From Acidimicrobiia bacterium (GTDB lineage Bacteria > Actinomycetota > Acidimicrobiia > Acidimicrobiales > JANYDT01), in NCBI GenBank assembly GCA_043743435.1, contig JAYTWN010000242.1, positions 1 to 37,269 of the forward strand: a stretch of DNA of 37,269 nt. The letters are read 5' to 3'. Under the pieces are notes generated by a model. The model saw only the letters and a program-made list of their open reading frames with translations, searched no databases and was not told the origin of the DNA. Shown here piece by piece: positions 6,433 to 36,043 of this stretch. Position 1 is the stretch's first letter; each line of letters begins with the position of its first letter. Position numbers and translations under genes: made by a program.

Positions 6433-7575
<1,143 letters not shown>

Positions 7576-7666
7576 TTAGGGGGCGGTACTCAAATCCTCT
7601 TTACCGGTCGAAACTGAAATTTCGCCCACTAAGGCCTTTTCTCAGTGCCACTGCAGGAAAAAGCAT

Positions 7667-7775: not shown

Positions 7776-7843
7776 GTGGGCGACATTTGGTGTGACCTGA
7801 ACCATCGAATCCAGAAAAAACCAGGTTTCAAGGAACCGCGAAC

Positions 7844-9109
7844 TTATGCAGCGTCGAGACCGAAAGCGGTGTGAAGTGCTTGCACCGCGGTTTCTACGTG
7901 GTCGGCTGCGATCACACATGACAGGCGGATGGTTGAGGTGGAGATCATCTCGATGTTCACACCTGCGTTGGCCAGGGTTTCGAACATGGTGGCCGATACG
8001 CCGGGGTTGGTGCGCATACCGGCGCCAACGAGCGACACCCGAGCGATGTTGGTTTGCGAGGTGACTGAAGCTGCACCGATGTCAGCCGAAACGGCGTTGC
8101 ACACTTCCAGGGCCGCGGGCAGATCTGATTTGGGGACGGTGAAGGAAATGTCGGTCTTCCCGTCGGTACCGGTGTTTTGCACGATCATGTCGACGTTGAC
8201 TCGGCGATCAGCCAAGGGGCGGAAAATGGCGGCCGAAACGCCAGGACGATCGGGCACTGCGCCAATGGTGATTTTGGCTTCCGACGTGTCATGGGTGATG
8301 CCAGAAACGATGGCCTGCTCCATGTTGCTCTCCTCATCGATGATGGTTCCCGGTTCCCAGGTGAAACTGGACCGGACGTGTAATTGCACATGGTGATTAC
8401 TGGCGTACTCCACGGCCCGAAGCGCAACAACGCCTGAACCGGAACCGGCCATTTCCAACATTTCTTCGAACGACACCCGAGCCATGCGATGCGCTTTGGG
8501 GGCGACTCGTGGATCAGCGGTGAACACCCCGGTTACGTCGGTATAGATCTCGCACGAATCGGCACCGAGCGCAGCAGCAACGGCAACGGCCGTGGTGTCA
8601 GATCCGCCGCGGCCCAGCGTGGTGATGTCTCGATCGGTGGACATGCCTTGGAATCCGGCAACGACAGGGACCATGCCCGCAGCCAATGCCGCTTTCAAAC
8701 GGTCGGCTTTTACCTCAAGAATTTTGGCTCGCCCGTGTTGGGTGTCGGTGAGAATTCCGGCCTGGGAACCGGTAAACGAAGCCGAAGGCACGCCAAGGTC
8801 GTCGATGGCCATGGCTACGAGCGCAGCGGAGATCCGTTCGCCCGTGGTGAGAAGCATGTCCATTTCACGGTTGTCGCCCTTGAGGGGAACGTCACCCTTT
8901 TTGGTGGCCTTTTCCACTGGGCCGGATTCGTTGGTGAGCACGGCGTTGGCCAGGCGAATCAGGTCGTCGGTGGTTTTGCCCATGGCGGACACGACGACAA
9001 CCACTTGATGGCCGCGCTTCACGGTTCGAGCCACGTTGTCGGCAACTTTACGAATACGTTCGGGATCGGAGACCGAAGAGCCGCCAAACTTTTGCACAAT
9101 CAAGGCCAC
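7844..9109 (-). CDS. lysC: Aspartate kinase (with two C-terminal ACT domains)
   Basis: MALIVQKFGGSSVSDPERI, VVVVSAMGKTTDDL, TTLGRGGSDTTAVAVAAAL and C-terminal ACT-type repeats. Length 421 aa. Confidence 0.95.
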   Translation of the reverse strand: MALIVQKFGGSSVSDPERIRKVADNVARTVKRGHQVVVVVSAMGKTTDDLIRLANAVLTNESGPVEKATKKGDVPLKGDNREMDMLLTTGERISAALVAMAIDDLGVPSASFTGSQAGILTDTQHGRAKILEVKADRLKAALAAGMVPVVAGFQGMSTDRDITTLGRGGSDTTAVAVAAALGADSCEIYTDVTGVFTADPRVAPKAHRMARVSFEEMLEMAGSGSGVVALRAVEYASNHHVQLHVRSSFTWEPGTIIDEESNMEQAIVSGITHDTSEAKITIGAVPDRPGVSAAIFRPLADRRVNVDMIVQNTGTDGKTDISFTVPKSDLPAALEVCNAVSADIGAASVTSQTNIARVSLVGAGMRTNPGVSATMFETLANAGVNIEMISTSTIRLSCVIAADHVETAVQALHTAFGLDAA

Positions 9110-11275: not shown

Positions 11276-12274
11276 GTGGCTCAACGTTCTTCGATTCGAC
11301 GCTCAGCGATTTTGAGCGGAGTACTGGTTGCTGTTCTCGGCGTTGGTGTGTCGGCGGCTGCGTACAACTATCGTGACAAGACACCGCTTGGCGTTGCTCC
11401 CAAGACGAAGGTCATCACCACGTCGGATCAATCCGGGGATTCCACTCCCTTGAATGCAACGACCACGGTTTTGCCAGACACGGTTACCGACACGACTCTT
11501 CCAGCCTTGGGTTCCGATAACTCGGTTCCGCCACTGGCTGCGCTTGACACCGTCACCGGAAGCACCTTGGTTGGAGCGATTGATTCGTCCACCACCACGG
11601 TTACGCCAGCTACCACCGCCGTTCCGGTAACTGTGCCGGGAGCTTCGCCGTGTGCTCCGCTTGACGGTTCGGGTGAGCGAATTACGCAGTTCTCGTCGGC
11701 ACCTCCGCAGTGTTTGGATCCCAAGGCTTCGTACTCTGCGGTGATCTCGACCAAGCAGGGTGAGATTCGCATTGTGCTCAATGCCAGGGACACGCCAGTT
11801 GCGGTGAATGCGTTTGTGTTCTTGGCCCGTCACAAGTTTTATGACGGTTTGACCTTCCACCGCATCGTGCCCGGGTTCATTGTGCAAGGTGGCGATCCAC
11901 AAGGGAACGGTTCTGGTGGGCCGGGCTTTACCTTTGCCGACGAGCTGCCCGCAGTTGCTGGTTATCCACTTGGTTCTGTAGCCATGGCGAACTCCGGTCC
12001 CAGTACCAATGGCAGCCAGTTTTTTATGGTTTCTGGTGATCTTGGCTTGCAGTTGCCGGCGTCGTTCACGTTGTTTGGCCGGGTCAATAAGGGTGTCGAT
12101 GCCGTAAAGGCCATTGATGCGCTGGGCAAGGCCCCAACAGCGGAAGGCGTGGAGTTTCCGCCGACTGAAGTTGTCACGATCGACAAGATTCGTATTGTTG
12201 CGGTGAATGAGCGCAAGGCCCGGATTCCGGCGTTGAATCCCGATGCAGTTTCAACCACCACAATTGGCCCGTAA
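11276..12274 (+). CDS. Membrane-anchored cyclophilin-type peptidyl-prolyl cis-trans isomerase
   Basis: N-terminal TM segment (AILSGVLVAVLGVGVSAAAY). A Thr/Ser-rich linker follows. The cyclophilin core reads FHRIVPGFIVQGGDPQGNGSGGPGFTFADE...MANSGPSTNGSQFFMV. GTG start. Confidence 0.9.
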   Translation: MAQRSSIRRSAILSGVLVAVLGVGVSAAAYNYRDKTPLGVAPKTKVITTSDQSGDSTPLNATTTVLPDTVTDTTLPALGSDNSVPPLAALDTVTGSTLVGAIDSSTTTVTPATTAVPVTVPGASPCAPLDGSGERITQFSSAPPQCLDPKASYSAVISTKQGEIRIVLNARDTPVAVNAFVFLARHKFYDGLTFHRIVPGFIVQGGDPQGNGSGGPGFTFADELPAVAGYPLGSVAMANSGPSTNGSQFFMVSGDLGLQLPASFTLFGRVNKGVDAVKAIDALGKAPTAEGVEFPPTEVVTIDKIRIVAVNERKARIPALNPDAVSTTTIGP

Positions 12275-12321
12275 GTTTTCCCTGCCCAATTCCCATGTCT
12301 TTTCTGAAAAGGTTCCAAAAA

Positions 12322-12879
12322 ATGTCCACTCCTGAATGTCCAGCAGCCGACGGTTCAAGCCCTAAGACGCAAAAGTTTCAAGGCCCGATCCCTATGTGCA
12401 TCGATCCGGCTAAGACCTATTCGGCCACCATGGTGACGTCGATGGGCGAAATGGTTATCGCCCTTGACCCCATTGGTGCACCCAAGACCGTGAACAACTT
12501 TGTGTTCTTGGCTCGCTATCACTACTTCGAGGGCATCAGCTTTCACCGCATTATTCAGGGCTTTGTTTGCCAGGGTGGCGATCCTCAGGGCACCGGTATG
12601 GGCGGCCCGGGTTACAAGTTTGAAGACGAATTGCCAAAGCCTGGCCGTTACGAAGTTGGCTCGGTCGCTATGGCCAACGCTGGCCCCAACACCAATGGCA
12701 GCCAGTTCTTCCTGATTTCTGGCCCTTCGGGTGTTCGTCTGCCACCGGCTTACGCTCTGTTCGGCAAGATCGTCAAGGGCCTCGATGTTCTCGACGCTAT
12801 GGAGAAGGTCAAGACTGGCGCTGGCGATCGTCCGCTCGTTCCTGTGACCATCGAATCGGTGACCATCACCGAATCCTGA
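12322..12879 (+). CDS. Cytoplasmic cyclophilin-type peptidyl-prolyl cis-trans isomerase
   Basis: FHRIIQGFVCQGGDPQGTGMGGPGYKFEDE...MANAGPNTNGSQFFLI. No signal or TM segment. The start is ATG 12322 or ATG 12295. Confidence 0.92.
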   Translation: MSTPECPAADGSSPKTQKFQGPIPMCIDPAKTYSATMVTSMGEMVIALDPIGAPKTVNNFVFLARYHYFEGISFHRIIQGFVCQGGDPQGTGMGGPGYKFEDELPKPGRYEVGSVAMANAGPNTNGSQFFLISGPSGVRLPPAYALFGKIVKGLDVLDAMEKVKTGAGDRPLVPVTIESVTITES

Positions 12880-14575: not shown

Positions 14576-14647
14576 GTCTTCCTGCCCGTCTTCCTGCCCG
14601 TCTTCCTGCCCGTCTTTTGGCCTGTCTTCCTGCCCGTCTTCTTGCCT
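14576..14647. repeat. Six tandem copies of a 12-bp unit (GTCTTCCTGCCC; copies 4 and 6 are variants)
   Basis: Direct reading gives GTCTTCCTGCCC x3, GTCTTTTGGCCT, GTCTTCCTGCCC, GTCTTCTTGCCT. The array starts 9 nt after the ybaK stop and ends 134 nt before the mutase start. Confidence 0.9.
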
Positions 14648-16755: not shown

Positions 16756-17041
16756 GCGTGCTTAGTTAACGCACTTGGCCCGGCCCTCTGGGCTGTTGGT
16801 CTGACACACCGTTGGGGTTCCGGAAGCCACGTAGGACTTCTGAACGACCGCTTAGGTGGCGAGTTCGTCATCACTCGCGCAAGATGCTGCGAGGACATCA
16901 ATGAGTTCGTCGAAGTCTGGTCCGGTTTCTCCCGCGTAGGAGGCTGCCATGCGTCCCCATTCATCCCAGGGAAGTGTCTCTACGTTGTGAGTGCGGCGAG
17001 ATCGCGGATCAGATTTCCGGCTTAAGAATTGCGACGTACAG

Positions 17042-17614
17042 CTAGGTGGCCCATTGCCAATCCAAAGGTAGCGCCGGGATCAAGAAGGAGGCGGGTGCGG
17101 TCCAGTGGCGGAAGTCGGCTCCGGGTTGGGTCCACCAAGTGTTCCCGTTATCTAGGATCGCACCGATCCGCGCTCCTTCGTGTCGAATTTCGTCGATCTG
17201 GTTTGCATCGAAGCGGCCGGTTTCGACGGACGCTTCGAGCTGCTCGTCGTCTTTGAGGGACCAGGTGCCATCCAGAAGGGCGATGATGTCGAGTTCGTGA
17301 TCGAAGGTATCGAATCCAACCGAAATTCGACTGAGCGGGTCCTGCAGGTTGATGTAGGCAACCTCACCGAAGAACCAGATGCTGTATCGCTCACCGGGTC
17401 GTTGCGCCATAACGATGTCTTGACCGCTCCATCCCGTGGCGTTGCGCCAGAAGTGAATCCCGAGCGGGTGATCGTCAACGAATCCGAACCGGGCACCAAT
17501 GGGAACGTGGACTGCCAGCAAGTCCGCACGGTCCTCAATCACGTTGGTGGCCATGGCCGACCACGGTTGCCCGCGACAGACCTCCCTGCGAATGCACGTA
17601 TCACCCGGGTTCAT
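17042..17614 (-). CDS. DUF402 (FomD/Ntdp-like nucleoside di/triphosphatase fold) domain protein
   Basis: AYINLQDPLSRISVGFDTFDHELDIIALLDGTWSLKDDEQLEASVETGRFDANQIDEIRHEGARI matches the DUF402 layout: Y-v-d-i..P, D-l-x-L-D-v, and D-e-d-E-l...G. The likely start is ATG 17614. The ORF opens at 17689. Confidence 0.6.
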   Translation of the reverse strand: MNPGDTCIRREVCRGQPWSAMATNVIEDRADLLAVHVPIGARFGFVDDHPLGIHFWRNATGWSGQDIVMAQRPGERYSIWFFGEVAYINLQDPLSRISVGFDTFDHELDIIALLDGTWSLKDDEQLEASVETGRFDANQIDEIRHEGARIGAILDNGNTWWTQPGADFRHWTAPASFLIPALPLDWQWAT

Positions 17615-17776
17615 AAAGAACCCTAGCCCCAGGGACTCAAAAACAGAATCAGGCCGTCTCGACGCATTTCGAATCGAGCCACGCGGCAACCTAAGACGAA
17701 AGTCGCTCAGCAGCGTCTACCGGGCTGATGACATCGACTCACCTTTGAGCAGCAGAACAGCCACGTTCAGCCGACC

Positions 17777-18094
17777 TTAGATCCCGAGGATTGATCGGAG
17801 ACCTTCGTCGATGTCGTCTATCAGTATTTTCGGCAGGCGGCCGGCTTGCTTGCCGAGTAACGATCGATCAATCAGTTCAAGGCCAAGGGGGATTGCCACA
17901 GAGTCCTGTGGGAGCCCGCTCGATTTGGCGGGAAGAAAGACATTGCCAGCCAGGCCCGCTCGGGCGACGTTCGATGTGACGGGCACCACGTGGGTCTGCC
18001 ACACCTTCACACTGAGGACTTCGTCGGAAGACACGACCACGCACGGCCTCCGTTTGTCTAGTTCGATCCAGTACACTGAGCCCCTGATCACCAT
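17777..18094 (-). CDS. Type II toxin, PemK/MazF-family endoribonuclease
   Basis: MVIRGSVYWIELDKRRPCVVVSSDEV...THVVPVTSNV...LPQDSVAIPLGLELIDRSLLGKQAGRLP is the typical MazF/PemK pattern: G-x-[IV]-Y-W-[IV], RP-x-VV[VI]S and VVP[IV]TS. Length 105 aa. Confidence 0.85.
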   Translation of the reverse strand: MVIRGSVYWIELDKRRPCVVVSSDEVLSVKVWQTHVVPVTSNVARAGLAGNVFLPAKSSGLPQDSVAIPLGLELIDRSLLGKQAGRLPKILIDDIDEGLRSILGI

Positions 18095-18321
18095 GGCGCA
18101 GAACGCTCCATACGTGTCATTGCTTTCAGTGATGCAGCCTTGCTTGGAGGTTTAGTCCCCGCTAGTTCAGCGTCAGCCAACAGTTGCTGGGCGAGGCTCA
18201 TCCCCGGATGGGTGGCGGCGTGATGTCGGAGCTGATTGGCAACCCAGGTGGAGAATGGAACATCCAGGCTGTCAATGATCGGCACGACGTCGTCGGGAAC
18301 GCTGATGGTTTTGTTCGGCAC
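18088..18321 (-). CDS. Cognate antitoxin (RHH/MazE-like N-terminus, disordered C-terminus)
   Basis: This 77-aa ORF lies immediately upstream of the toxin and overlaps it by 7 nt (ATGGTGA). The N-terminus KTISVPDDVVPIIDSL..PFSTWVANQLRHH resembles ribbon-helix-helix antitoxins. Confidence 0.7.
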   Translation of the reverse strand: MPNKTISVPDDVVPIIDSLDVPFSTWVANQLRHHAATHPGMSLAQQLLADAELAGTKPPSKAASLKAMTRMERSAPW

Positions 18322-18511
18322 GTACGTATCTTACATACATATAACTTTCTTGCCGAGAGCGAGGGCTGCCGTGCGGAAATGCAGCAGAGGTAGGAGAGTA
18401 CGCCCTGAACGTAGATGGCCGACGGATTACCTGCGTCCCAGCAAGGTAGCGGGTCAATGCAGTGTCGATGAGATTTGGTTTCGCGAATCGAGTTTCCAGC
18501 ACCAGTTCGGG

Positions 18512-20059
18512 CTAGCTAATCTCGGGAATTGGATGGGGTGGGGGTGGGCCCACGTAGCGGGCACTTGGTCGGATGATCTTTGAATCGGCCGCCTGCTCAA
18601 GGATGTTGGCTGACCATCCAATCACTCGGCTCGAGGCAAACGTGGGTGTAAACATGGCTGGGGAAAGGCCAACAGTTGCCATCACTACGCCTGCGAAGAA
18701 CTCGACGTTGGTGTACAACTCCCGTCCAGGTTTGAGCTCGGCGAGAAGTTCCACGATTCTGCGCTCCACCTTCACGCCGAGCTCAGCGAGTGGACCTCCG
18801 AGGGAAATTGCGATGTCGCGCAACATCAACGACCTGGGATCATCGGTTCGGTAGACAGGATGACCAAATCCCATGATCCGCTCCCCATTTTCAATCTTCG
18901 GTCGCACCACTTCGTCGATTCGATCAACGGTTCCGATCTCATCGAGAAGGTCGAGTGCTCGGCTTGGCGCTCCGCCGTGCAAAGGTCCCGACAGAGAGGC
19001 GACACCACCTACAACAGCTGCAGCGCAATCGGCCCCCGTCGACGCGATCACGCGGGCGGTAAATGTTGACGCGTTGAATCCATGATCGATCGTGGACACG
19101 AGGTACTGCTCAATGGCTCGAACATGTTGCGGTGACCCCTCCACGCCGTTCATCATCCATAAATAGTTTTGTGCATACGTCAAGCCGGGTTTTGGATCAA
19201 TGGGTGTTTGAGCAATCCCAAGTCGGTACAGTGTGCAAAGGATGACCGGAGTTACCGCACAAAGTCTGAGGAGGTTCTGGCGGCGCTCAGCTGGGCTTGC
19301 ATCGAGCACAGGCCGCATTCGATCATGTGCGCCGATCATGGACAGCGCGCTGCGAAGGCCGTCGAGCGGACCAACGCCGTTCACTAGCGATGGCAGCAGG
19401 TGCGCGATTGGTTCAGGAATGGTGCGCATGGCGTTCACTTCTTCAGTAAATGCGTTTCGTTCTGCGAGGGTGGTTGGCAGCGAACCATCGATCATTAAAC
19501 GCCAAACGTCTTCGAGACTTCTGTTCCGTGCGAGGTCGGTAGCTGAGTATTGGCGATAGTGATAGAAGCCTTCGCGTCCGCGAACGTCACCCACTTCGGT
19601 TTCTGAAACGACAACACCTTTAAGGCCACGGGGGACCTCGGGAACAGTGTCCGATGGTGAAGTGATGTTTGCAATTCGCATCAAGTCTCGAAGCGAGATG
19701 ACGCCGACAACTTCACCACCATGTACGACAGGGGCGTGTCGATAACCGCGTTCGCGCATTGTCCTCAGCGCGGTCGACCCATCCTCTTTGGCGTCAATGA
19801 CATCGACAGGGCTACTCATAACTTCGCTCAAGGGCGAATCAATACTCCCGTCTTTGGCAAGCTGGCGAAGGACGTCGCGTTCGGTAACGATGCCGAGAAG
19901 TGTTCGCCCTTCGACAATCAATACCGAGCCAACCCGTTGATCATGCATTCGGCGTATTGCCGTGGAAAGAGGCTCATCCGGTGATGCAGTAACCGCGGGA
20001 TGAGTCGCAATCGAATCGACAGAGAGGAGGGCGGTGGCGGTGGCGGTGGCTGTAGTCAT
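18512..20059 (-). CDS. CBS-pair domain fused to a citrate synthase / 2-methylcitrate synthase-family enzyme
   Basis: Two CBS motifs occupy the N-terminal 150 aa or so (RVGSVLIVEGRTLLGIVTERDVLRQL; YRHAPVVHGGEVVGVISLRDLMRI). The citrate-synthase core follows: GLKGVVVSETEVG...FYHYRQYS, GPLHGGAPS, GFGHPVYRTDDPR, LYTNVEFFAG, SRVIGWSANILEQ and IIRPSARYVGP. The start is ATG 20059 or ATG 20098. Confidence 0.88.
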   Translation of the reverse strand: MTTATATATALLSVDSIATHPAVTASPDEPLSTAIRRMHDQRVGSVLIVEGRTLLGIVTERDVLRQLAKDGSIDSPLSEVMSSPVDVIDAKEDGSTALRTMRERGYRHAPVVHGGEVVGVISLRDLMRIANITSPSDTVPEVPRGLKGVVVSETEVGDVRGREGFYHYRQYSATDLARNRSLEDVWRLMIDGSLPTTLAERNAFTEEVNAMRTIPEPIAHLLPSLVNGVGPLDGLRSALSMIGAHDRMRPVLDASPAERRQNLLRLCAVTPVILCTLYRLGIAQTPIDPKPGLTYAQNYLWMMNGVEGSPQHVRAIEQYLVSTIDHGFNASTFTARVIASTGADCAAAVVGGVASLSGPLHGGAPSRALDLLDEIGTVDRIDEVVRPKIENGERIMGFGHPVYRTDDPRSLMLRDIAISLGGPLAELGVKVERRIVELLAELKPGRELYTNVEFFAGVVMATVGLSPAMFTPTFASSRVIGWSANILEQAADSKIIRPSARYVGPPPPHPIPEIS

Positions 20060-20096
20060 ACAACTGATAGTGCTCTCGTGGCTTGTCACAGTCAAC

Positions 20097-20128
20097 ATTG
20101 ATTTTGATCAACGTTGATTTTGATCAAC
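20097..20128. promoter_or_regulatory. Two tandem 16-bp palindromic sites ((A/G)TTGATTTTGATCAAC) in the divergent promoter region of the two citrate-synthase paralogs
   Basis: ATTGATTTTGATCAAC (20097-20112) is followed directly by GTTGATTTTGATCAAC (20113-20128). Each holds the inverted repeat GTTGAT-N4-ATCAAC and the perfect 8-bp palindrome TTGATCAA. A further GTCAAC half-site lies at 20091-20096. Confidence 0.6.
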
Positions 20129-20149
20129 TATATGTGTACGCTTCAGTTT

Positions 20150-21373
20150 ATGACTCGCATGTCCACGGCCCAGGCGGCGAAGCGGCTCGGTGTGAAGCCG
20201 TCGACGATTTATGCGTATGTGAGCCGCGGAATACTGACCAGCGTTCAGTCGCTCGACGGTCGAAATAGCATGTTTTCCACTTCAGAGGTTGAACAGCTAG
20301 CGAGGCGCGGAAAACCTCGTCAATCGAGTCGTTCCCATGCGCTGGATTTCGCAATAGACACCTCGATTACGTCAATCACGCAACAGGAATTGCGCTACCG
20401 CGGGTACAACGCGATAGCGCTCGCCGCAACGGCGACTTTTGAACAAGTCGCCGATCTCTTGCTCATTGGTACATTGCCGACGCATACGTCTTGGCCGGTT
20501 TGCACAGTACCGGTTCCTGCGTCGCGGTCGATCTTTGATCACGTTGGATTCGCAACGATTCTCGCTGGGGCGACGGATCCTTTTCGAAGCGATCTCGCTC
20601 CAAGTTCCGTGGCCCAAACGTCGCGCACCCTTATAGCGGCAATCGTTGATTCACTCCCCACCCAAGGTGAGGGACGTACGCCACGTTTGCAGATTGGTGA
20701 CGAGTCGTATCTCTCTACGATCGCTGGTCGTCTTTGGACGAAACTGTCTCCTCGACGACCCACTTCGGGGATGATGTCGGTGCTCAATGCGGCCCTGGTG
20801 CTCCTAGCCGATCATGAGCTCGCGGTATCAACGGTCGCTGCCCGTGTGACTGCCTCGACACACGCCGATCCCTATGCGGTCGTGCGGGCAGGAACGGCTG
20901 CGATGAGCGGTCCCCTACATGGGGGTGCAAGCCGCTCGGCTAGGGAGATGCTTGACAATGCGCTGGCCGAGAGAGGCCGAACTGCGGCGAGTATCGACCG
21001 CGCCGCAAGCGAAGCGCTTTCCCGTTTTGGTGCATACCCAGGCTTCGGCCACAAGGTGTACAAAAGCGGTGATCCCCGAGCTGAGAAATTGCTGGCGATG
21101 TTGCGTGAAGTCGCAGGCGGCACTTCGGAGATGAGTGTTGTCGATGGAATAGTAAGTGCAATTGGGAAACGCCGCGACATACAGCCGAACATGGATCTCG
21201 CGCTGGCAGCGCTTGGTGTCGTGGCCAATTTCCCAGAAGATGCGGGTGAGTTCATTTTCTCGATCGCTCGTGTGGCCGGTTGGTGTGCACATGCGATCGA
21301 GGAGTACGCAGAAGAGCCACTCCGCTTCCGAGCCCGCGCAATCTTTGTCGACCCCGCGGGTCCGCAAATGTAG
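20150..21373 (+). CDS. MerR/excisionase-type HTH DNA-binding domain fused to a citrate synthase-family domain
   Basis: N-terminus MSTAQAAKRLGVKPSTIYAYVSRGILTS...FSTSEVEQLARRG (HTH_17-like). The citrate-synthase fold follows: ITQQELRYRGYNAIALAATATFEQVADLLLIGTLP, GPLHGGAS, YPGFGHKVYKSGDPR, QPNMDLALAAL and ARVAGWCAHAIEEY. The start is ATG 20150 or 20159. The ORF opens at TTG 20114, inside the operator repeats. Confidence 0.85.
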   Translation: MTRMSTAQAAKRLGVKPSTIYAYVSRGILTSVQSLDGRNSMFSTSEVEQLARRGKPRQSSRSHALDFAIDTSITSITQQELRYRGYNAIALAATATFEQVADLLLIGTLPTHTSWPVCTVPVPASRSIFDHVGFATILAGATDPFRSDLAPSSVAQTSRTLIAAIVDSLPTQGEGRTPRLQIGDESYLSTIAGRLWTKLSPRRPTSGMMSVLNAALVLLADHELAVSTVAARVTASTHADPYAVVRAGTAAMSGPLHGGASRSAREMLDNALAERGRTAASIDRAASEALSRFGAYPGFGHKVYKSGDPRAEKLLAMLREVAGGTSEMSVVDGIVSAIGKRRDIQPNMDLALAALGVVANFPEDAGEFIFSIARVAGWCAHAIEEYAEEPLRFRARAIFVDPAGPQM

Positions 21374-25328: not shown

Positions 25329-27065
25329 TTACTGAATTTCGTTCGCCAAGTATTCGGCAGTGAGGCGGCCGTCGAGATTCCAGCGGCCCACCGTGCCGTT
25401 CCAACCTGCGGTGAACAGTGTTGCTTCGCCAACGGCAACGGCAGGCACACCCGGTTTTCCATGCAAGCGAAGCGGCGTCCATTCCCAACCACGGAAACCG
25501 CGATGCCATGCGAGAGCGGTGCCATCGTAGGAACCGGTGAGAATGAGGTTGCCGTCGCTGGTTACGGCGATGGCTTTCACCGATTTACGGTGGCCGTAAC
25601 CGAGGGTTTCGATGAGTGCACCCGTAGAGGCATCCCAAATACGCACCCGCAAATCCCGCGACGCCGAGACCACAATCCCGGCTTCGTCGGCACAGGCCAC
25701 AGCGTTGACCAACACCAGATCATCCGCGTTGGCTCGCCAAGCCAGTCGCTCACCATTCCAAGCGCTCAGCGATCCGTCCGACGAACCAGCGACGAGCAGA
25801 TTGGCCGATGCACTCCACGCCAAAGATTTGATGGGCCCATGGTGTGCAGTGAACGTGGAGGTGCAGGTTCCATCGATCTGCCAGGTGCGGACACAACCGT
25901 CGTAGCCGCCGCTATAGAACGTGTCCCCACTTGGGTTCCAAGCAATGGAGTTGACCGGGCCACCGTCGGCCGCGCGGGTCAGAACCGCTGTTCCGCCACC
26001 AGGTTGTAGCGGCGTGACGTGGACTCCGCCGCGATAGTCGCCACTAGCCACGCAGCAGTTATTCGGGGATATGGCAACGGTGTTTACGATGGTGCCGTGT
26101 TGGGTGAGAACCTCTGCGCGCAGAACATCTACCACCCGGCCGTCGTCGCGACCAACGAGCAGCCGACCATTTGATGACGCAATCGAGTTGATGCCATAGG
26201 TGAGCTCTAAGCCACGTCCCGTTGGCGGATGTTCAATGGGTCCAGCACCGAAACTGCCAATCACGATGCCCCTATTGGTGAAGCCACCGGCACGTTCCCA
26301 CTGAAACGCTTGACGATAGGATTCGATCAGTGACCACGACATGCAATCATAAGCACGCATAGTGGCATCATAGGAACCAATCAGTATCCGCGCGCCGGTA
26401 GCATCGAAACGAATAAACCGAACCGCTGCCGTTGCTTCGATAAGTTCACGTACCAATTCGCCAGTAGTTGGATCCCAAACCCGGGCGATCCCGTCGTCGC
26501 AACCGGTCACGATCACGCTGCCATCGGGTGACCAATCCAGTGCCTCGGGATCACCGGGATGGTGAAGCACAAACAGTTGATCCCCGGTGGCTATTTCCCA
26601 GATACGGGCCGTGGAATCCTCGGCCACCGTGGCCACGCGGGTACCGCTGGGATCGAACGCCACCGCAAACACACCGCTTTCATGTCCGTCGAGGGCAACA
26701 CTGGCTGAGCCGTCGAGTGGCCAAAGACGAATGGTGGTGTCGAGGTGATCCATAACGCAGGCCAACTGCGAGGCATCGGGTGACCAGCGAACGGCATTCA
26801 CATCGTCGCCATGGGGACCAAAGACATCGGTTCGAGCACCGTTGTTCATATTCAACACAAAGGCATTGCTATCGGCCACGGCCACGGCCACACGAGTACC
26901 GGTGGGGTCTATGCGCACGTCGTTCACCAGGTCATCGAAGTCGGCAAACCAGAGCTCGGTACCGTCGGGATTCCAGGCGACAACTCGACCATCGTATCCA
27001 CCGGTGACGCGCAGATCAGTGGCGAGATGATGATCGACACAGGTAATGGGAGAGCGATGAGGCAT
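25329..27065 (-). CDS. WD40 / beta-propeller repeat protein (about 13-14 repeats, no recognisable extra domain)
   Basis: Repeats of about 40 aa recur, such as GHESGVFAVAFDPSGTRVATVAEDSTARIWEIATG, DWSPDGSVIVTGCDDGIARVWDPTTG, SLAWSASANLLVAGSSDGSLSAWN, and AIAVTSDGNLILTGSYDGTALAWH. The start is ATG 27065 or GTG 27125. Confidence 0.85.
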   Translation of the reverse strand: MPHRSPITCVDHHLATDLRVTGGYDGRVVAWNPDGTELWFADFDDLVNDVRIDPTGTRVAVAVADSNAFVLNMNNGARTDVFGPHGDDVNAVRWSPDASQLACVMDHLDTTIRLWPLDGSASVALDGHESGVFAVAFDPSGTRVATVAEDSTARIWEIATGDQLFVLHHPGDPEALDWSPDGSVIVTGCDDGIARVWDPTTGELVRELIEATAAVRFIRFDATGARILIGSYDATMRAYDCMSWSLIESYRQAFQWERAGGFTNRGIVIGSFGAGPIEHPPTGRGLELTYGINSIASSNGRLLVGRDDGRVVDVLRAEVLTQHGTIVNTVAISPNNCCVASGDYRGGVHVTPLQPGGGTAVLTRAADGGPVNSIAWNPSGDTFYSGGYDGCVRTWQIDGTCTSTFTAHHGPIKSLAWSASANLLVAGSSDGSLSAWNGERLAWRANADDLVLVNAVACADEAGIVVSASRDLRVRIWDASTGALIETLGYGHRKSVKAIAVTSDGNLILTGSYDGTALAWHRGFRGWEWTPLRLHGKPGVPAVAVGEATLFTAGWNGTVGRWNLDGRLTAEYLANEIQ

Positions 27066-27189
27066 ACAAATGGCTTTCGTTAGCGGTGGTGCTGGCGGAA
27101 AAGAGGTGTTCTTGGAGGCAACCAATTCAATTGCAACGGGTGGATCGAAACAGCAAGGATTTGGAACCGGCGAAGGTCAACGCTGTGGC

Positions 27190-28362
27190 TCATTCAGGCC
27201 CTTCCAACGCTGCAATGACCTGATTGAGTTCAAGGCGCAACTCGGCGCGAAGTTGGCCGGTGAATGCGTTACTGAACGCCACCAGTCGAGTGAACATGAA
27301 TTCGTTTCTCGCCTCTGCAAAGGTTGGGTGCGGCCAGCGTTGCATCCAATCATCCATGGAGTCTCGAAGTGATGGAGAGAGTTCTTCAACGGAGGCTAAC
27401 GAAACGGCTTTGCTCAAGATGGGCTTGAGCAAAAAATGGCGCAGTGATCGTTCGATTGCCCCGTCGACAAGGGCTTGTACCTCATCAGCTTGGAGATCAG
27501 TTGGATTACCGGTTGGCTTGAGCCGCTCGAAAGCACCTTCGTACGCTTCCCCGCTGACATAAGCGTGGACGTCGGCAAGAAAACGGCGACCCCGATCGAT
27601 TACCGAAGCAGGCGTTTCCAGGATCCGAAATCCTGCTTGACGGAGACGGACACCGAGATCCCAATCTTCCCCGGCCAACGAAATGGTCCCGTTTGGTCCG
27701 TCAGCGGTGGGCTGAAGATACGGGCCAGCAATCAGATATGCGTCGGCGCGTACTGCATGGTTCACTCCGTTGAGGTTGGTGATGCCGACGATTCCTTCAC
27801 CCTTGTTGATCCCTAGCCCAAAGGCTCTGCTCACCTTTTTGGCAAAGGGGTGATCTGTGTACAGATGATCTTGAATCTCGGCACCGTTTACCGCCCCGAC
27901 TGTTACCGTCGCTGGGGGATTGGTGGCTTCGGCGGCCTCGATCTCATCGAACGTGGCGTTCCAATGCGCGAGCCAGTCTTTGCTCACCTCTACGTCGGCG
28001 TCCACGGTTACCAGCCACTGCGGTGCTCCCTCGCTCGACGCCATGGCCGCCCCAACCCCAGCACTGCGTGATCCGCCCGGCGAGCCAAAACGGCCTGTAA
28101 CGATGGACACCCGGCTTCGGTGGACAACGGTAGCCAATGCCAACAGTTTCGGTGTGGCATCGGTGCTCGAATCATCCACGAGCACAACGCGCCAGCGGTT
28201 GTCGGTAACAATTTGGGGAAGCATGGTGGCCAACAAACGATCAACATAACCCTCTTCGTTAAAACAGGGGACGATTACCGTGGCGCGAATGGGACGCACT
28301 GTGTTGGGTGATCCGTGATCTTGGTGTGAAGATGCCACCGGTTTCAGAGCTCCTTCGTGCAT
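27190..28362 (-). CDS. Family 2 glycosyltransferase (GT-A fold) with a C-terminal helical extension of about 120 aa; no TM segment seen
   Basis: ATVIVPCFNEEGYVDRLLATMLPQ...VVLVDDSSTDATPKLL, DxD-like TVDADV, and GEDWDLGVRLRQAGF. Confidence 0.82.
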   Translation of the reverse strand: MHEGALKPVASSHQDHGSPNTVRPIRATVIVPCFNEEGYVDRLLATMLPQIVTDNRWRVVLVDDSSTDATPKLLALATVVHRSRVSIVTGRFGSPGGSRSAGVGAAMASSEGAPQWLVTVDADVEVSKDWLAHWNATFDEIEAAEATNPPATVTVGAVNGAEIQDHLYTDHPFAKKVSRAFGLGINKGEGIVGITNLNGVNHAVRADAYLIAGPYLQPTADGPNGTISLAGEDWDLGVRLRQAGFRILETPASVIDRGRRFLADVHAYVSGEAYEGAFERLKPTGNPTDLQADEVQALVDGAIERSLRHFLLKPILSKAVSLASVEELSPSLRDSMDDWMQRWPHPTFAEARNEFMFTRLVAFSNAFTGQLRAELRLELNQVIAALEGPE

Positions 28363-28462
28363 GTTCTTGAAGTTCGGACGCCTGCGCCCTTTCTATGGAA
28401 ATATTCGGTCAGCAGGAGAAATGCGCTTCGGGCGCACGCGCCCAAACTGCGATTCCCCGCAC

Positions 28463-28571
28463 TAGTGCAGGGAAGCGTAAGTCATTGCGTAGTGTTTTGA
28501 CCTCAGTTGCCAGCACCAACGCGGAAAGGGCCACCAGGACACTACGCAATGATTTACGCGCACACGCACTA
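28463..28571 (+). mobile_element. MITE copy B (109 bp including flanking TA dinucleotides)
   Basis: TA-GTGCAGGGAAGCGTAAGTCATTGCGTAGTGT...ACACTACGCAATGATTTACGCGCACACGCAC-TA. The terminal arms of about 31 nt are imperfect inverted repeats. It is near-identical to copies A and C. Its last base plus the TA form the TAG stop of the gene at 28569-29159(-). Confidence 0.85.
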
Positions 28572-29159
28572 GGCGGGGTCGGGTGCCATGGTTGAGTCGT
28601 CATGGTCGACCCAAAACTCACCCTTCAGCGCGCTTATGATTTCGATGGCGACGTTGGCTCCGCTTCCTGCACACACGACGGCTTGTGAGGGCCATCCAGC
28701 GACCACGCCAGCGGCCCAGACCCCGGGAATTGAGGTGGCGCCCCAATGATCGGTCACTACATTTACTTTTACGAAAGGCTGACGAGCCACGGTGGTGTCG
28801 ACCTCGAGCGATGCCAACTTCAGCGTTCCCTGCCCCGTAGCCAGAACGATGTAGCGAGCAGAAATCTGATCCTCGCCAGATACAACGGTGAAGCCTCCCG
28901 AAGTTGCGGGCTGGACATCGTCGACCTTGGCGGTTGAGATAGGAACTTGTGCGCTGGCAAGTTTGGTTCGCAACGAGGCAAGGAGCTCGCGACCCTCAAG
29001 CTCATTGGAACCAGGAAGATTCTTGAGCAACGCGCGTTTGAGAATGGAGCGATCCTGATCGAACACTTCGACTGCGACTCCGGCCCGGGCGAGGAAATGC
29101 GCCGCGGTAAGGCCGGCCGCACCGCCGCCTATTACTGTCACCGTGGTTGTTCGTTCCAT
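28569..29159 (-). CDS. Short FAD-binding oxidoreductase: thioredoxin-reductase-like FAD domain without the NADPH domain
   Basis: TVTVIGGGAAGLTAAHFLARAG (GxGxxG), YIVLATGQG (ATG motif), then directly DHWGATSIPGVWAAGVVAG...AGSGANVAIEI (C-terminal FAD segment). At 196 aa it is about the size of the two FAD-domain segments of TrxR alone. Confidence 0.7.
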   Translation of the reverse strand: MERTTTVTVIGGGAAGLTAAHFLARAGVAVEVFDQDRSILKRALLKNLPGSNELEGRELLASLRTKLASAQVPISTAKVDDVQPATSGGFTVVSGEDQISARYIVLATGQGTLKLASLEVDTTVARQPFVKVNVVTDHWGATSIPGVWAAGVVAGWPSQAVVCAGSGANVAIEIISALKGEFWVDHDDSTMAPDPA

Positions 29160-29388
29160 AGTTGCTCCTCAACTCACTTTGCGTGTGCGAATACTCGGGG
29201 CGAGCATCAGATCAATCGTAGTGGGGGCACGCGTCTTGGCGGTTTGGCATCGGTCATACGGCTGCGAGCGAGTTGGTTGTTGTTGTAGATCGTTGTAAAG
29301 GCCTCACACGTCCCTTTTAAGCCAGAAGCTATTGTCGCAGGCTGGTGTTTGCGAGCGAAGAAGCTATACCCGAGGAGGGAATTAGACT

Positions 29389-30069
29389 TTGAGCGTGTCA
29401 AACCTCAATGCAGCCACCATTCGCAATCGAGTGCGTATTCCTCTGCGATTCGCCGACGGGTATGAGGCCACAGCCGACGTGTTCAGCTTCCACGGATTGG
29501 TTGACGGGAAGGAACATCTGGCCCTGGGATTTGGTTTGGCTGATGTGTCCGGCGATCCCGCCGCTGACCAGTCGCCCCCAGTTGCTGCGCAAGACGTTCC
29601 GTTGGTGCGAATTCATTCCGAGTGCCTAACCGGTGACGTGTTTGGTTCGCTGCGCTGCGATTGCGGTCCGCAGCTACGAGAAGCGGTCGGATTGATTTCG
29701 AAGGACGGCGGATACGTGTTGTATCTTCGCCAAGAGGGCCGGGGGATTGGCCTTTACACAAAGCTCGATGCGTATCGATTACAAGATCGTGGAATGGACA
29801 CCTTCGAGGCCAACCGTGCTCTGGGTCGCAATGATGACGAACGCGAATACACCGTTGCTGCGCAAATGCTACGTGCGCTTGGTGTTACCAGTGTCGAGTT
29901 GCTTTCCAACAATCCCGACAAGTTTGAACAGATGACTGAACTTGGCATCACCATCACCCGCAAAGTCCCAACCGGTGTGCACGTGTCGGAAGAAAATCAC
30001 GGCTACCTCACGGCAAAAATCGACCAACACGCGCACACTATCGATCTACCCAGTCGGATCGACGACTAG
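29389..30069 (+). CDS. ribA: GTP cyclohydrolase II (monofunctional, not fused to RibB)
   Basis: VRIHSECLTGDVFGSLRCDCGPQL (zinc Cys triad), YLRQEGRGIGLYTKLDAYRLQDRGMDTFEAN, and LLSNNPDK. TTG 29389 lies 8 nt after GAGGAGGG. The TAG stop at 30067-30069 lies in the MITE C junction. Confidence 0.92.
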   Translation: MSVSNLNAATIRNRVRIPLRFADGYEATADVFSFHGLVDGKEHLALGFGLADVSGDPAADQSPPVAAQDVPLVRIHSECLTGDVFGSLRCDCGPQLREAVGLISKDGGYVLYLRQEGRGIGLYTKLDAYRLQDRGMDTFEANRALGRNDDEREYTVAAQMLRALGVTSVELLSNNPDKFEQMTELGITITRKVPTGVHVSEENHGYLTAKIDQHAHTIDLPSRIDD

Positions 30070-30172
30070 TGCAGGGAAGCGTAAGTCATTGCGTGGTGTT
30101 TTGACCGTTGCCAGCACCAACGCGGAAAGTGCCACCAGGACACTACGCAATGATTTACGTGCACATGCACTA
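30067..30172 (+). mobile_element. MITE copy C (106 bp including flanking TA; 5-bp internal deletion relative to copy B)
   Basis: TA-GTGCAGGGAAGCGTAAGTCATTGCGTGGTGTTTTGACC-GTTGCCAGCACCAACGCGGAAAGTGCCACCAGGACACTACGCAATGATTTACGTGCACATGCAC-TA. Confidence 0.85.
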
Positions 30173-30296
30173 GCCGATTTAGCTGTTTGTGTTAGGTCTT
30201 GTGCCGCTGTACTTTGGCGGCCTTTTTCGTCTCCTGATTCGCCACTATGAGCTTGGCGTCAAAGGCTTACCGCTGATGGTTCCTTCGAACGAAGCG

Positions 30297-31148
30297 CTAG
30301 CTGCCTGAGTAGCTCGTGACTATGGCATTGCTCAGTTGTGGCCAAGCGGCCATGGCCCATGTATCGAATTCCCGATCACTGAGCGCTACGGCGGCCAAGT
30401 CCCGAGTTGGGTCGACCCACAGAATGGTGCCGGATCCTCCGAAGTGACCAAAGGTGGCCGGCGATGTGAATTGTCCACTCCAGTGAGGCTGTTTTCCGCC
30501 TTTAATCTCGACGCCGAGACCCCAGGGAAGCGGGTCAAAACGGCCAATCCCTGGGAGCATGCCGGCAAGGGCGGGAAACTGGCAGCGGGTGAAATCGGCA
30601 AACGTTTCGGGAGCGAGCAACGTTGGACGGAGCAGTTCGGTCGCAAACCTAGAGAGGTTGGCGGCGGTTGAATGAACGTTTGCGGCGGGTGAGCCGCGGA
30701 GTTCAGTGTTGCGCATTCCCAGCGGTTCAAAAACGGCTTCTCGAAGGTAGTCGGCGAAGGGCATGCCAGTGTTTCCTTCGACGATGCGCGCAGCTCGTTC
30801 GATTCCCTCGTTGGAGTAAATGCGCCTCGTCTCGGGTGCCAACTGTTGTTCGGAACCGCTGTGGAATCCAAACCCAGCAGCGTGGGAAAGCAGATGTCGA
30901 AGCGTGAACGGTGCACTCGTTGTGGCTGAATCTAAAGCTTTGGGCGCCTTCATCTCTTCGTCGAGCGTGACACTTCCCTCTTCAACCGCGATGAGTATTG
31001 CGTAGCCCGCCAGTACTTTGCTGATAGAGGCCAAACGGAACATGCGTGCCTGATCGCCGCGCTGAGCGATGATGCCCTCAGGTGTGATTACCGCAGCCGC
31101 AACGTGCGGTACGGGCCACTGATCAATCTCTGCAAGCGGCGAGTCCAT
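30297..31148 (-). CDS. Serine hydrolase, beta-lactamase/transpeptidase-like family
   Basis: S-x-x-K motif in FRLASISKVLAGYAILIAVEEG. LSHAAGFGF follows. The length and overall pattern fit the class C/esterase-like family. Confidence 0.8.
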   Translation of the reverse strand: MDSPLAEIDQWPVPHVAAAVITPEGIIAQRGDQARMFRLASISKVLAGYAILIAVEEGSVTLDEEMKAPKALDSATTSAPFTLRHLLSHAAGFGFHSGSEQQLAPETRRIYSNEGIERAARIVEGNTGMPFADYLREAVFEPLGMRNTELRGSPAANVHSTAANLSRFATELLRPTLLAPETFADFTRCQFPALAGMLPGIGRFDPLPWGLGVEIKGGKQPHWSGQFTSPATFGHFGGSGTILWVDPTRDLAAVALSDREFDTWAMAAWPQLSNAIVTSYSGS

Positions 31149-31258
31149 AAAAGCAATACTACGTCGTTGCGCTATCGGCTCCGGCCTGCACCGTCTCTGA
31201 TTCCTTTGCGCCTCAGTCTCAACGTGACATCGAGAGCGCTCCCCGTTAACGTGGCGCC

Positions 31259-32899
31259 ATGACCGACTGGAACTGGGCCGACGTTTTTGAAACCATTGCT
31301 GCCGCTACACCCGATGCCCCGGCGCAGGTGTGCGGTGATCGTCGCTTTTCGTGGAGCGATTTTGATAGGCGTGCGAACAACTTGGCGGCCGATCTGCTGG
31401 CGGCAGGCATTGGTGAGCAAGGCAAAGTTGCGGCGTATCTCACCAACTGTCCGGAATACTTGGAAACCTATTACGCGGCGTTCAAGGCCGGTTTGGTCCC
31501 GTTGAACACCAACTTTCGATACGGCCCCGAAGAGATCAAGTACCTTTTCGATAACGCCGATGCCGAGGCAGTTATCTTTCACGCTTCCTATGCAGAGGTG
31601 TTGGAAGAAATCCGCCACGAACTACCCCTGGTGAAGCGTTGGTATGTGGTCGACGATCCTGAACAAACCGCGGCTACCCGTCCCAGCTGGGCTACTCCGT
31701 ATGAGAATATTGCAGGTGCTTCGCAGTCAGTAAGTGTGCCTACGAAAGCGGACTGGGGCCGTTCCGGTGATCATATGTTGTTCCTCTATACCGGTGGAAC
31801 GACAGGTATGCCCAAGGGTGTTATGTGGCGCCAAGACGATCTGTTCAATGTCTTGGGCCGTGGCGGAAACGCTCTGCAAGGACGCCCGCCCGTTGACTCA
31901 CTCGAAACTCTACGTGCACAGACTATACATCCACCAGCGCCGGCGCCGATCCTTTTGCCAGCGTGTCCAGTGATGCACGGAACCGGACAGTTTTCCGCCC
32001 TGATCGCCCTGGGAATGGGAGGTTCGGTCGTTACGAATCCTCTGCGCTCCTTCGATGCCGCGCAACTTTTTGATCTCGTCGAACAAGAACGCGTAGGGCA
32101 AATTGTCATCGTGGGCGACGCGTTTGCTCGACCGTTGTTGGCTGCCCTCGATGCAAACCCGGGTCGTTGGGATCTTTCCGGTTTGCGGGTGATCTCCAGC
32201 AGTGGCGTGATGTGGAGCCAGGAGACCAAAGACGCTCTGTTGGAACACCTCCCCGAAGTAGTTCTGTTTGATTCGTTTGGATCCTCCGAAGCGGTGGGCC
32301 TTGGGGCCTCGGTGAGCACGAAGGGCAATGCGCAGAAGACGGCAAAGTTTGCACTCGGTCCAACGGTTCACGTGTTCGACGATGACAATGTTCGTGTGAA
32401 CCCGGGCGACGAGCGCATTGGCTTTGTGGCCCTAAGCGGCTACGTTCCACTTGGGTATTACAAAGACCCGGAGAAGTCGGCGAAGACCTTTCGTACTATC
32501 GACGGGGTTCGCTACTCGGTACCCGGCGATTACGCGCAGGTGATCGAAGACGGCACACTGCATCTGCTTGGTCGTGGTTCGGTTTGCATCAACACTGGTG
32601 GCGAGAAGGTCTTTCCTGAAGAAGTTGAAGAGGTGGTAAAACTCCACGAGTCCATCAACGATGCGGTGTGCGTTGGTATCCCCGATGACCGGTTCGGTGA
32701 AGTCATTTGTGCAGTGGTCGAGCCATTCAACGGTGCGACGATCGATGCCGATGCGGTCATCGAACACGTTCGCGCCCTCCTGGCCCGGTATAAGTCACCC
32801 CGCCATATCGTGGTGATCGAAACAATCGGACGCGCCGCCAACGGAAAGGTCGACTACAAACGACTAACCGCCTACGCAAAAGATGTTCTTGGTTCCTAA
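31259..32899 (+). CDS. AMP-dependent acyl-CoA synthetase/ligase (FadD-like)
   Basis: AMP-binding motif LFLYTGGTTGMPKGVMW. SSEA..G follows, then YSVPGDYA, GRGSVCINTGGEKVFPEEVE and a C-terminal GKVDY. Confidence 0.9.
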   Translation: MTDWNWADVFETIAAATPDAPAQVCGDRRFSWSDFDRRANNLAADLLAAGIGEQGKVAAYLTNCPEYLETYYAAFKAGLVPLNTNFRYGPEEIKYLFDNADAEAVIFHASYAEVLEEIRHELPLVKRWYVVDDPEQTAATRPSWATPYENIAGASQSVSVPTKADWGRSGDHMLFLYTGGTTGMPKGVMWRQDDLFNVLGRGGNALQGRPPVDSLETLRAQTIHPPAPAPILLPACPVMHGTGQFSALIALGMGGSVVTNPLRSFDAAQLFDLVEQERVGQIVIVGDAFARPLLAALDANPGRWDLSGLRVISSSGVMWSQETKDALLEHLPEVVLFDSFGSSEAVGLGASVSTKGNAQKTAKFALGPTVHVFDDDNVRVNPGDERIGFVALSGYVPLGYYKDPEKSAKTFRTIDGVRYSVPGDYAQVIEDGTLHLLGRGSVCINTGGEKVFPEEVEEVVKLHESINDAVCVGIPDDRFGEVICAVVEPFNGATIDADAVIEHVRALLARYKSPRHIVVIETIGRAANGKVDYKRLTAYAKDVLGS

Positions 32900-35444: not shown

Positions 35445-35653
35445 TAACGCCTTGCTCTGTTGAGTTCACTCTCGCTTAGCTGTCGAGCCAACCCAGGTTG
35501 CTCCTGGGTGGGGCCAATAACACTCGGAAGCGCCACTCAGCCTGGCGCTAGCGGGTGTTCGCGGACGAGACTATGCACGGATTTCGTGTGATTTCCGCAG
35601 TTGTGTTGGCGGATCGGGTCAAAAAACTGCAGAGTAACCTCCGCTTCCCTGCG

Positions 35654-36043
35654 CTAGTAGTAAATCGAACCTGGCGAGCCGCCACCGCACACAAGAGCGT
35701 CACCGTTGATAGCCAAGCTGAGCGGTGAGGCTAAGAAGGCGATGATCACGGCGATGTCATCGGCATCGATCATGGAACGAATCGAATTCCCTTTCACGAT
35801 GCGTTCTTCGATCGAAGCCAAAAGCGCCCGGTCTTGCTCATTCACGGCGTCTTCGAGTGAACGGGTCCGGGTAAGCCCAGGGTGAACGCAAGTCACGTTG
35901 ATTCCGTTAGGCCCAAGTTCATCGGCAAGATTCTTGGTAAGAGCAGCCACGGCCACGTTGCGAATCGAGCCGATGGTTGAACCGCTAATGCGCGCTGCTA
36001 ACCCGGCAACGTTAATGATTCGTCCCCATCCGGCTTCGGCCAT
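35654..36043 (-). pseudogene. Truncated short-chain dehydrogenase/reductase (C-terminal half only, catalytic triad lost)
   Basis: MAEAGWGRIINVAGLAARISGSTIGSIRNVAVAALTKNLADELGPNGINVTCVHPG aligns with the SDR segment M..GRIvniSS......Y.asKaA...lt..lA.E....gI.vN.v.PG. In that alignment Ser is Gly, Tyr is Ile and Lys is Ala. The whole Rossmann N-terminal half is absent. An in-frame TGA lies 4 codons upstream, and the guaD stop is 27 nt away. Confidence 0.55.

Follow-up and report, generated by a model that had tools for sequence, protein, structure and literature searches.

The window, by which we mean the whole stretch of DNA of 37,269 nucleotides that was analysed, is a chromosomal contig with housekeeping genes, namely panB, rpsF-ssb-rpsR-rplI, asd-ask, methylmalonyl-CoA mutase, citrate synthases, ribD and ribA. 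The nearest named homologues of its proteins are 66-67% identical (an actinomycete RibA, and the aspartate kinases of MAGs labelled Actinomycetota or Acidimicrobiales), and closer relatives are found only in metagenomes; the host is therefore a member of an uncultured lineage of the Actinomycetota. Several features of this contig may be recorded in their own right. Positions 18512-21373 hold two divergently oriented citrate-synthase-family genes, one with an N-terminal CBS pair and the other with an N-terminal HTH_17 DNA-binding domain fused to the citrate-synthase-like domain; a 16-nt repeat, TCAACATTGATTTTGA, is present 2.3 times at their meeting point (20092-20128). A 12-nt tandem repeat, GTCTTCCTGCCC, with about six copies (84% matches) occupies 14576-14646 between the genes for a YbaK-like editing protein and methylmalonyl-CoA mutase, and a MazF/PemK-type toxin gene (17777-18094, minus strand) lies within a poorly annotated segment (16756-18511) with several unassigned ORFs. 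Two tandem genes for cyclophilin-type prolyl isomerases are located at 11276-12879; they share a 76-nt stretch that is 76% identical (11961-12036 and 12647-12722).

Dispersed over this contig are copies of a short repeated element, which we designate A to D in the order of their positions:

7667-7775, minus strand: copy A, 109 nt including both TAs; in the ask-asd spacer, within a conserved intergenic hairpin; target CAC-TA-T/A.
28450-28464, minus strand: solo left end, TAGTGCGGGGAATCG, 15 nt, of which 13 positions match the left end of the element.
28463-28571, plus strand: copy B, 109 nt including both TAs; its right TA plus the terminal G is the TAG stop of a 196-aa TrxR-like gene.
28569-28571, minus strand: TAG stop codon of the TrxR-like gene, formed by the end of copy B.
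30067-30172, plus strand: copy C, 106 nt including the TAs; its left TA plus G is the TAG stop of ribA (30067-30069).
35549-35656, minus strand: copy D, 108 nt; divergent and partly decayed, of a subfamily shared with copy I of the related contig L126.
35654-35656, minus strand: TAG stop codon of a short-chain dehydrogenase (SDR) gene fragment, formed by the left TA of copy D plus G.

Copies A, B and C are the near-identical elements noticed in the original prediction, and the positions given there are exact. Their pairwise identities amount to 93.6% (B-C), 91.4% (A-B) and 88.6% (A-C), and a profile built from the copies recovers all three in a search of the window with E values between 1e-32 and 1e-35. 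The proposed number of three copies in 37 kb fell short by the divergent copy D, which was found by a repeat finder, is likewise flanked by CTAG, and possesses the same termini as the other copies (TA-GCGCAGGGAAGCG ... CGCGAACACCCGC-TA); its internal arms are different but self-complementary. The left-end 16-mer CTAGTGCAGGGAAGCG, when up to three mismatches are allowed, occurs five times in the window, against 0.26 occurrences expected. The solo left end stands head-to-head with copy B, and one TA is common to both. We considered the 100 bp to the left of copy B as a decayed element and rejected this candidate: only the terminal 15 nt match, the remainder scores like shuffled sequence, and positions 28363-28449 can be aligned to no copy. 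The copies within the window diverge from each other by 6-11%, and hence their insertions are not very recent. The ORF that abuts copy D (35654-36043, minus strand) encodes no more than the C-terminal half of a short-chain dehydrogenase (positions 120-234 of the Pfam profile) and has an in-frame stop just upstream; it is probably the remnant of a gene.

The anatomy of the element was derived from an alignment of 12 copies and from RNA folding. It comprises about 102-105 bp plus the duplicated TA, and its parts follow each other in the order TA, GTGC, a 6-nt non-pairing block, a 25-nt arm, a loop of about 35 nt, the complementary arm, a second 6-nt block, GCAC, and TA. The terminal 15-mers of the element are TAGTGCAGGGAAGCG and CGCGCACAYGCACTA. 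The two 6-nt blocks are unpaired yet conserved in sequence (AGGGAA on the left, GCACAC or GCACAT on the right). In copy B, these parts are positioned as follows:

28465-28499, plus strand: left arm, with the terminal GTGC, the AGGGAA block (28469-28474) and the 25-nt pairing arm (28475-28499).
28500-28534, plus strand: central loop, which varies between subfamilies and keeps the motif GCGGAAAG.
28535-28569, plus strand: right arm, with the pairing arm (28535-28559), the GCACAC block (28560-28565) and the terminal GCAC.

The imperfect terminal inverted repeats of about 31 nt that were described for these elements are real: by hand count, 25 of the 31 positions of the arms match, and when G.U pairs are allowed, 25 consecutive pairs and a terminal stem of six pairs bring copy B to 31/31. 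It was also correctly foreseen that the whole element can fold into one long hairpin. The RNA fold of copy B has an energy of -58.3 kcal/mol, while shuffled sequences reach -29.6 +/- 3.3 kcal/mol (z = -8.6); copies C, E, F and I fold with -54 to -55 kcal/mol and copy A with -43 kcal/mol. The fold of copy D is much weaker (-36.6 kcal/mol; z = -2.9), which marks this copy as decayed. Across the 12 copies, standard pairs are present in 93.5% of the pair cells, compared with 26-44% when the partners are slid against each other, and six pairs have changed in both partners, in most cases between the main subfamily and that of D and I. Such two-sided changes are to be expected alike for a hairpin and for two ends that bind one transposase, and they do not discriminate between the two. 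The pairing differs somewhat between the strands, since the top strand pairs at 31/31 positions in copies B, C, G and J, while the bottom strand of these copies pairs at 26-28/31, with mismatches that are mostly G.T wobbles.

Two reading frames are open through the element, both without a start codon. We used their translations as a probe against a collection of 5.8 billion proteins and then retrieved the matching contigs. Seven "hypothetical proteins" matched, and all of them are merely translated copies of the element; the view that the ORF peptides shared by the loci of the window are artefacts of the repeat is thereby borne out. Ten further copies or fragments, eight intact and two partial or decayed, were found in related metagenomic and MAG contigs:

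L119: copy E.
L124: copies F (8306-8414) and G.
L125: copy F2 (7071-7178), orthologous to F, so that seven of the eight intact copies are independent.
L126, 187-399: copies H and I, head-to-head, with one TA common to both.
L168: copy J.
L169: copy K.
L172 (a Logan contig), at its very end: an I-like left end, truncated where the contig stops.
L171, 17005-17101: a decayed copy with an intact left end (TA-GTGCAATGAAGCGTAAGTCATTG) and a lost right terminus.

Taken with the four copies of the window, the count comes to 13 independent copies, all at unrelated loci. E and G each match copy B in the arms at 100% identity, despite the fact that the shared genes of the same host genomes are only about 80-85% identical; the loops of these copies differ. 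The orthologous copies F and F2 stem from two strains; F2 has a deletion and substitutions at its left end, and this difference shows that an inserted copy decays where it sits. In their contigs, copies E, F and G have PIN and Phd/YefM toxin-antitoxin genes as neighbours, and the HTH gene that adjoins F in L124 is absent from L125. The left flank of copy J contains a mirrored GTGCAGG (L168, 660-676). With the pairs H/I and solo end/B, this is a further case of left ends in head-to-head arrangement, and the element's own end may be a preferred target.

Searches of other sequence collections were negative. A 23-mer from the left arm had no match among metagenome_contigs, and a pattern of the two termini found 34 loci in that collection, all of them GC-rich chance matches that lack both TA flanks and hairpin arms. 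No copies were present in viral_contigs; genome_contigs returned 116 chance matches to the 15-mer ACGCAATGAYTTACG and no real copy, this pattern being too short; and a blastn search of the PLSDB plasmids produced chance matches only. A search of the literature for the sequence of the element and for actinobacterial TA-flanked MITEs (miniature transposable elements with inverted repeats) found nothing relevant. The family appears to be undescribed and restricted to this lineage; it is very rare in public data, and the sample of known copies is accordingly small.

The mobility of the element is shown by empty sites. Through the flanking proteins we retrieved the orthologous regions of relatives, whose DNA is 78-87% identical to that of the window. 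At site A, the spacers of L171, L172 and L178 (about 84% DNA identity) read ...GATGTCGCCCAC-TA-TCGCTGTTTTTC...GGGGCGACAT... and lack the element, while the window reads ...AATGTCGCCCAC-TA-(105 bp)-TA-ATGCTTTTTCC...GTGGGCGAAAT... at this position. The junction is thus ATGTCGCCCAC-TA-TCGC in the relatives and ATGTCGCCCAC-TA-(105 bp)-TA-ATGC in the window: the flanks are homologous, and the single TA of the relatives corresponds to two in the window. Copy A landed in the loop of a conserved hairpin of the ask-asd spacer. This spacer (7558-7843 in the window; 12590-12775 in L171) forms a conserved long hairpin, with ATGTCGCCC ... GGGCGACAT in L171, and the shorter ask-asd spacers of L170 and L179 do not contain the long hairpin.

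At site B, the C-terminus of the TrxR-like protein is the same, ..APDPA*, in the window and in both L127 and L133. The empty sites read GCC TAG CGCC in L133 and GCT TAA TTGG in L127, with an unrelated spacer after the stop, while in the window GCC TAG is followed directly by TGCGTGTGCGCG..., the inverted right end of copy B, so that the element begins after the TA. The spacer to the next gene measures 14 bp in L127 and L180 and 206 bp in the window. No base-exact empty site can be defined for copy C, where the C-termini of ribA and the downstream genes vary among the relatives; at site D, the neighbouring gene in L132 encodes a thiolase and not the SDR fragment. The decayed copy of L171 sits between two tandem cyclophilin genes and starts from the first gene's TAA stop; at this position, the window (12275-12294) and L173 have no element but a spacer of 20-23 bp between the cyclophilin genes. 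None of the 24 related loci retrieved via flanking genes contains an intact copy; only the decayed copy of L171 and the contig-end fragment of L172 were found there. Two Logan contigs of the same species, L117 (100% identity) and L118 (99.6%), break off within copies B and C after 27-28 nt or 70 nt, which is how assemblers behave at multi-copy repeats. In summary, the single TA at the orthologous sites A and B of relatives and the TA-element-TA arrangement in the window show that the element has moved. Conservation of the sequence at orthologous positions, which would have spoken for a structured RNA gene, was not seen, as the corresponding spacers of the relatives are empty at A and B; such a gene is unlikely.

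A TA brackets the element on both sides in 11/11 complete copies, which extends to the relatives what had been reported for the three copies of the window. The base that precedes the left TA is a C in 11/11 independent cases, and the base that follows the right TA is a G in 9/12. When the element and one TA are removed in silico, CTAG is restored in eight of the 11 copies (B, C, D, E, H, I, J and K), including the two, B and C, for which this had been noted; CTAA results for A and G, and CTAC for F. Hence, the flanking tetranucleotides are unequal in three copies (A, CTAG/TTAA; F, CTAG/CTAC; G, CTAG/CTAA), whereas the TA is equal in all of them. The variant base is always located on the right side, and the left side always reads CTAG. 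The unequal tetranucleotides of A, F and G favour an exact duplication of 2 bp, while both empty sites would also fit a duplication of the 4-bp sequences CTAG/CTAT; on balance, the duplication of TA is favoured over that of a 4-bp CTAG/YTAR sequence. One property of the target is not predicted by a simple symmetric model of TA targeting: the left flank is AC in 9/11 copies, and the mirrored GT is found on the right in only 3/12 (Fisher p = 0.012).

The element is small and non-coding, has terminal inverted repeats, duplicates its target, and occurs in dispersed copies that differ in presence and absence between relatives; it is a MITE, as had been proposed. The second part of that proposal, mobilization by an IS630-family enzyme, was not established; the TA/CTAG signature suggests such an enzyme, and this signature is its evidence. 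Pfam scans of 43 ORFs detected no transposase domain in the window, in agreement with the original prediction, and no transposase with the ends of the element was found in about 300 kb of related DNA. The only transposase gene near a copy is of the ISL3 type (L124/L125). We rejected it as the partner, as its ends are not common to the element; ISL3 makes 8-bp duplications. Solo ends spaced 0.7-3 kb apart, as a full-length insertion sequence would leave them, were absent from all related loci. We consider it probable that the copies constitute a non-autonomous MITE family of an uncultured actinomycetotal lineage, which duplicates TA and is mobilized in an IS630/Tc1-mariner-like manner by a transposase encoded elsewhere. 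Such a transposase would bind the arms, and the bound element would be excised in a cut-and-paste reaction and inserted at a TA, preferably in the context 5'-(A)C-TA-G-3', with duplication of the TA. An inserted copy would leave a highly stable hairpin at the 3' end of a transcript or in the spacer of an operon, and we consider this hairpin a by-product.

The positions of the copies relative to genes reveal a pattern on which the original prediction was silent. In eight of the 13 independent copies, one end coincides exactly with the stop codon of an adjacent ORF. These are copy B (TrxR-like gene), copy C (ribA), copy D (SDR fragment), copy F (PIN toxin gene), copy G (phosphoribosyltransferase gene), the fragment at the end of L172 (nitroreductase gene), and copies H and J, which abut partial ORFs without domain support. 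Both termini of the element read TA|G, and consequently an insertion into a TAG or TAA stop codon rebuilds TAG in either orientation and leaves the protein unchanged. Four of the copies are co-oriented with the gene whose stop they abut, and four (B, F, H and J) are opposite to it.

In the window, 673 of the 860 TA dinucleotides are coding, and CTAG occurs 46 times where 139 occurrences are expected from the base composition; there are eight non-coding CTAGs without a copy in spacers and three on stop codons. With CTAG being scarce and most TAs being coding, stop codons would be among the few harmless targets, and copies would accumulate there. The finding of 8/13 copies at stops has a probability of p = 1e-4 if all non-coding TAs are taken as equally likely targets, and of 0.14 if only the non-coding CTAGs count. 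Therefore, the preference for CTAG as the target and the loss of insertions that disrupt genes are enough to explain the pattern. An actual adaptation of the element to stop codons, going beyond mere selection and with a hairpin that the host has perhaps adopted as a stabilizer of 3' ends or as a terminator, is unlikely, if not negligibly so. On that reading, the sequence (A)C-TA-G may be largely confined to the ends of genes in a CTAG-poor genome and may provide a harmless niche behind ORFs, and the wobble and flank biases would then reflect selection at the level of single strands or RNA, or an asymmetric transposition complex.

Different mobilizing enzymes, or no mobility at all, have also to be weighed against the data. 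An IS5-family (or PIF/Harbinger-like) transposase would insert at CTAG/YTAR and duplicate these 4 bp; the element proper would then read TGCAGGG...CGCA, with the CTAGs on its flanks as the duplication. There is a precedent in MITEPsy1, an element of 100 nt with IS5-like ends that resides at CTAG or YTAA sites and duplicates 4 nt (PMC3189936). In the present family, every copy has CTAG as its left tetranucleotide; on the right, CTAG stands in 8/11 complete copies, and the exceptions include CTAA and TTAA, which likewise conform to YTAR. Both empty sites are compatible with a duplication of this length. The two 4-bp flanks are, however, unequal in copies A, F and G. This counts weakly, as mutation after insertion may have occurred, but the arms of G are identical to the consensus, so that a mutated duplication is not expected in this copy. 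Moreover, only the right side carries the variant base, the left always having G, as fits a G that is the first base of the element, and the empty site A of L171 reads CTAT, unlike either 4-bp flank of copy A. The ends would also start with TGC, unlike the ends usual for the IS5 family, which start with GG or GA in ISfinder entries. Taken together, we judge an IS5-type origin to be improbable.

A palindrome moved in single-stranded form by a Y1 (HUH) enzyme like those of IS200/IS605 or REP/RAYT would insert without duplication next to (A)CTAG, and the CTAG on the right would belong to the element. The orientation-dependent AC-TA of the left flank (9/11), which resembles the right end CAC-TA of the element, and the arm mismatches, mostly G.T wobbles on one strand (31/31 pairs on the top against 26-28/31 on the bottom in B, C, G and J), would both fit this explanation, with which the empty sites are formally compatible. 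It is nevertheless very improbable in our view: there is one long terminal inverted repeat and neither two subterminal hairpins nor a REP sequence of 20-40 nt with a GTAG head, the right end of copy A would need four changes, the right tetranucleotides vary where a fixed cleavage site is expected, and a duplicated TA is present. Furthermore, the window and the gene tables of the loci retrieved by protein look-up contain neither a Y1 transposase nor a TnpB gene. Still harder to sustain is an immobile structured RNA or DNA signal (a terminator, an mRNA-stabilizing hairpin or a protein-binding site) that is kept for its function. The hairpins are very stable, their pairs co-vary between subfamilies, 8/13 copies start at a stop codon, and the wobble pairs show a slight strand bias, all as such a signal would have it. 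Yet the copies are missing from the orthologous spacers of relatives although the flanks are conserved, their orientation to the abutted gene is mixed (4 vs 4), and such a signal would have no use for the duplicated TA. The covariation would be no less expected of inverted repeats to which a single transposase binds. No Rfam 15 family reaches its gathering score in the whole window, the best being mir-5882, a generic miRNA hairpin, with 25 bits against a threshold of 95 bits, and a separate terminator-like hairpin (30203-30221) with its T-run (to 30230) is situated downstream of copy C. We return to the TA-duplicating MITE family as the reading that we prefer.

For the annotation of genomes from this lineage, the element is of practical concern, since it spawns spurious "hypothetical proteins" (seven in public data), breaks short-read assemblies and marks the ends of genes. 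Biologically, it represents an element that targets TA/CTAG and sits on stop codons without altering the protein, because its own first base completes the TAG. Hairpins of up to -58 kcal/mol in the ask-asd operon spacer and at the 3' ends of ribA and other genes could also alter expression.

TA-duplicating MITEs are well known from other bacteria, and the family does not introduce a new principle; its sequence seems to be undescribed, and it goes beyond the routine only in its stop-codon-regenerating termini and in the asymmetry of its flanks. IS630 of Shigella/E. coli is autonomous, measures about 1.15 kb and encodes a DDE transposase; it reportedly duplicates TA and prefers a TA within 5'-CTAG-3'. 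The present family resembles it in the CTAG preference and, on the favoured reading, in the TA duplication, and differs in that neither a gene of this kind nor a matching end was seen here. With the REP/BIME sequences mobilized by RAYT enzymes it has in common that both are abundant, extragenic, palindromic and located at the 3' ends of genes; REPs, however, measure 20-40 nt, have a GTAG head and do not duplicate their target, in contrast to the roughly 105 bp, the long repeats and the duplicated TA of the present element. The ends of the Correia elements also begin with TA-TAGTGG. These elements of Neisseria (Correia/NEMIS; 107 and 155 bp), like the present family, are hairpin-forming, TA-flanked MITEs; they are co-transcribed with neighbouring genes, and the ORFs of their short form become fused to annotated genes (PMC2229807). 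They differ from the family described here in sequence and host and in possessing an experimentally demonstrated IHF site, outward promoters and RNase III sites, while a search of 27000-31500, around copies B and C, gave no match to a sigma-70-like promoter. MITEPsy1 of Pseudomonas syringae, which derives from the IS5-family element ISPsy2, is similar in its 100 nt, its terminal inverted repeats and its CTAG/YTAA sites, but it has a 4-nt duplication and GGAAGG-type ends (PMC3189936), where our element has GTGC ends, three copies with unequal tetranucleotides, and an equal TA throughout. The RUP element of Streptococcus pneumoniae, a MITE of 107 bp that was attributed to IS630-Spn1 from its TA targets and the similarity of the terminal inverted repeats, stands in a different host phylum, has a different sequence and possesses a full-length partner with matching ends, for which no counterpart was found here; an association with stop codons is not described for RUP in the review that we consulted (PMC2229807). 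In its length of about 107 bp, its terminal inverted repeats, its insertion at TA, its non-coding nature and its many intergenic sites, RUP is nonetheless much like the present family, and in both the mobilizing enzyme has been inferred rather than demonstrated (PMC2229807).
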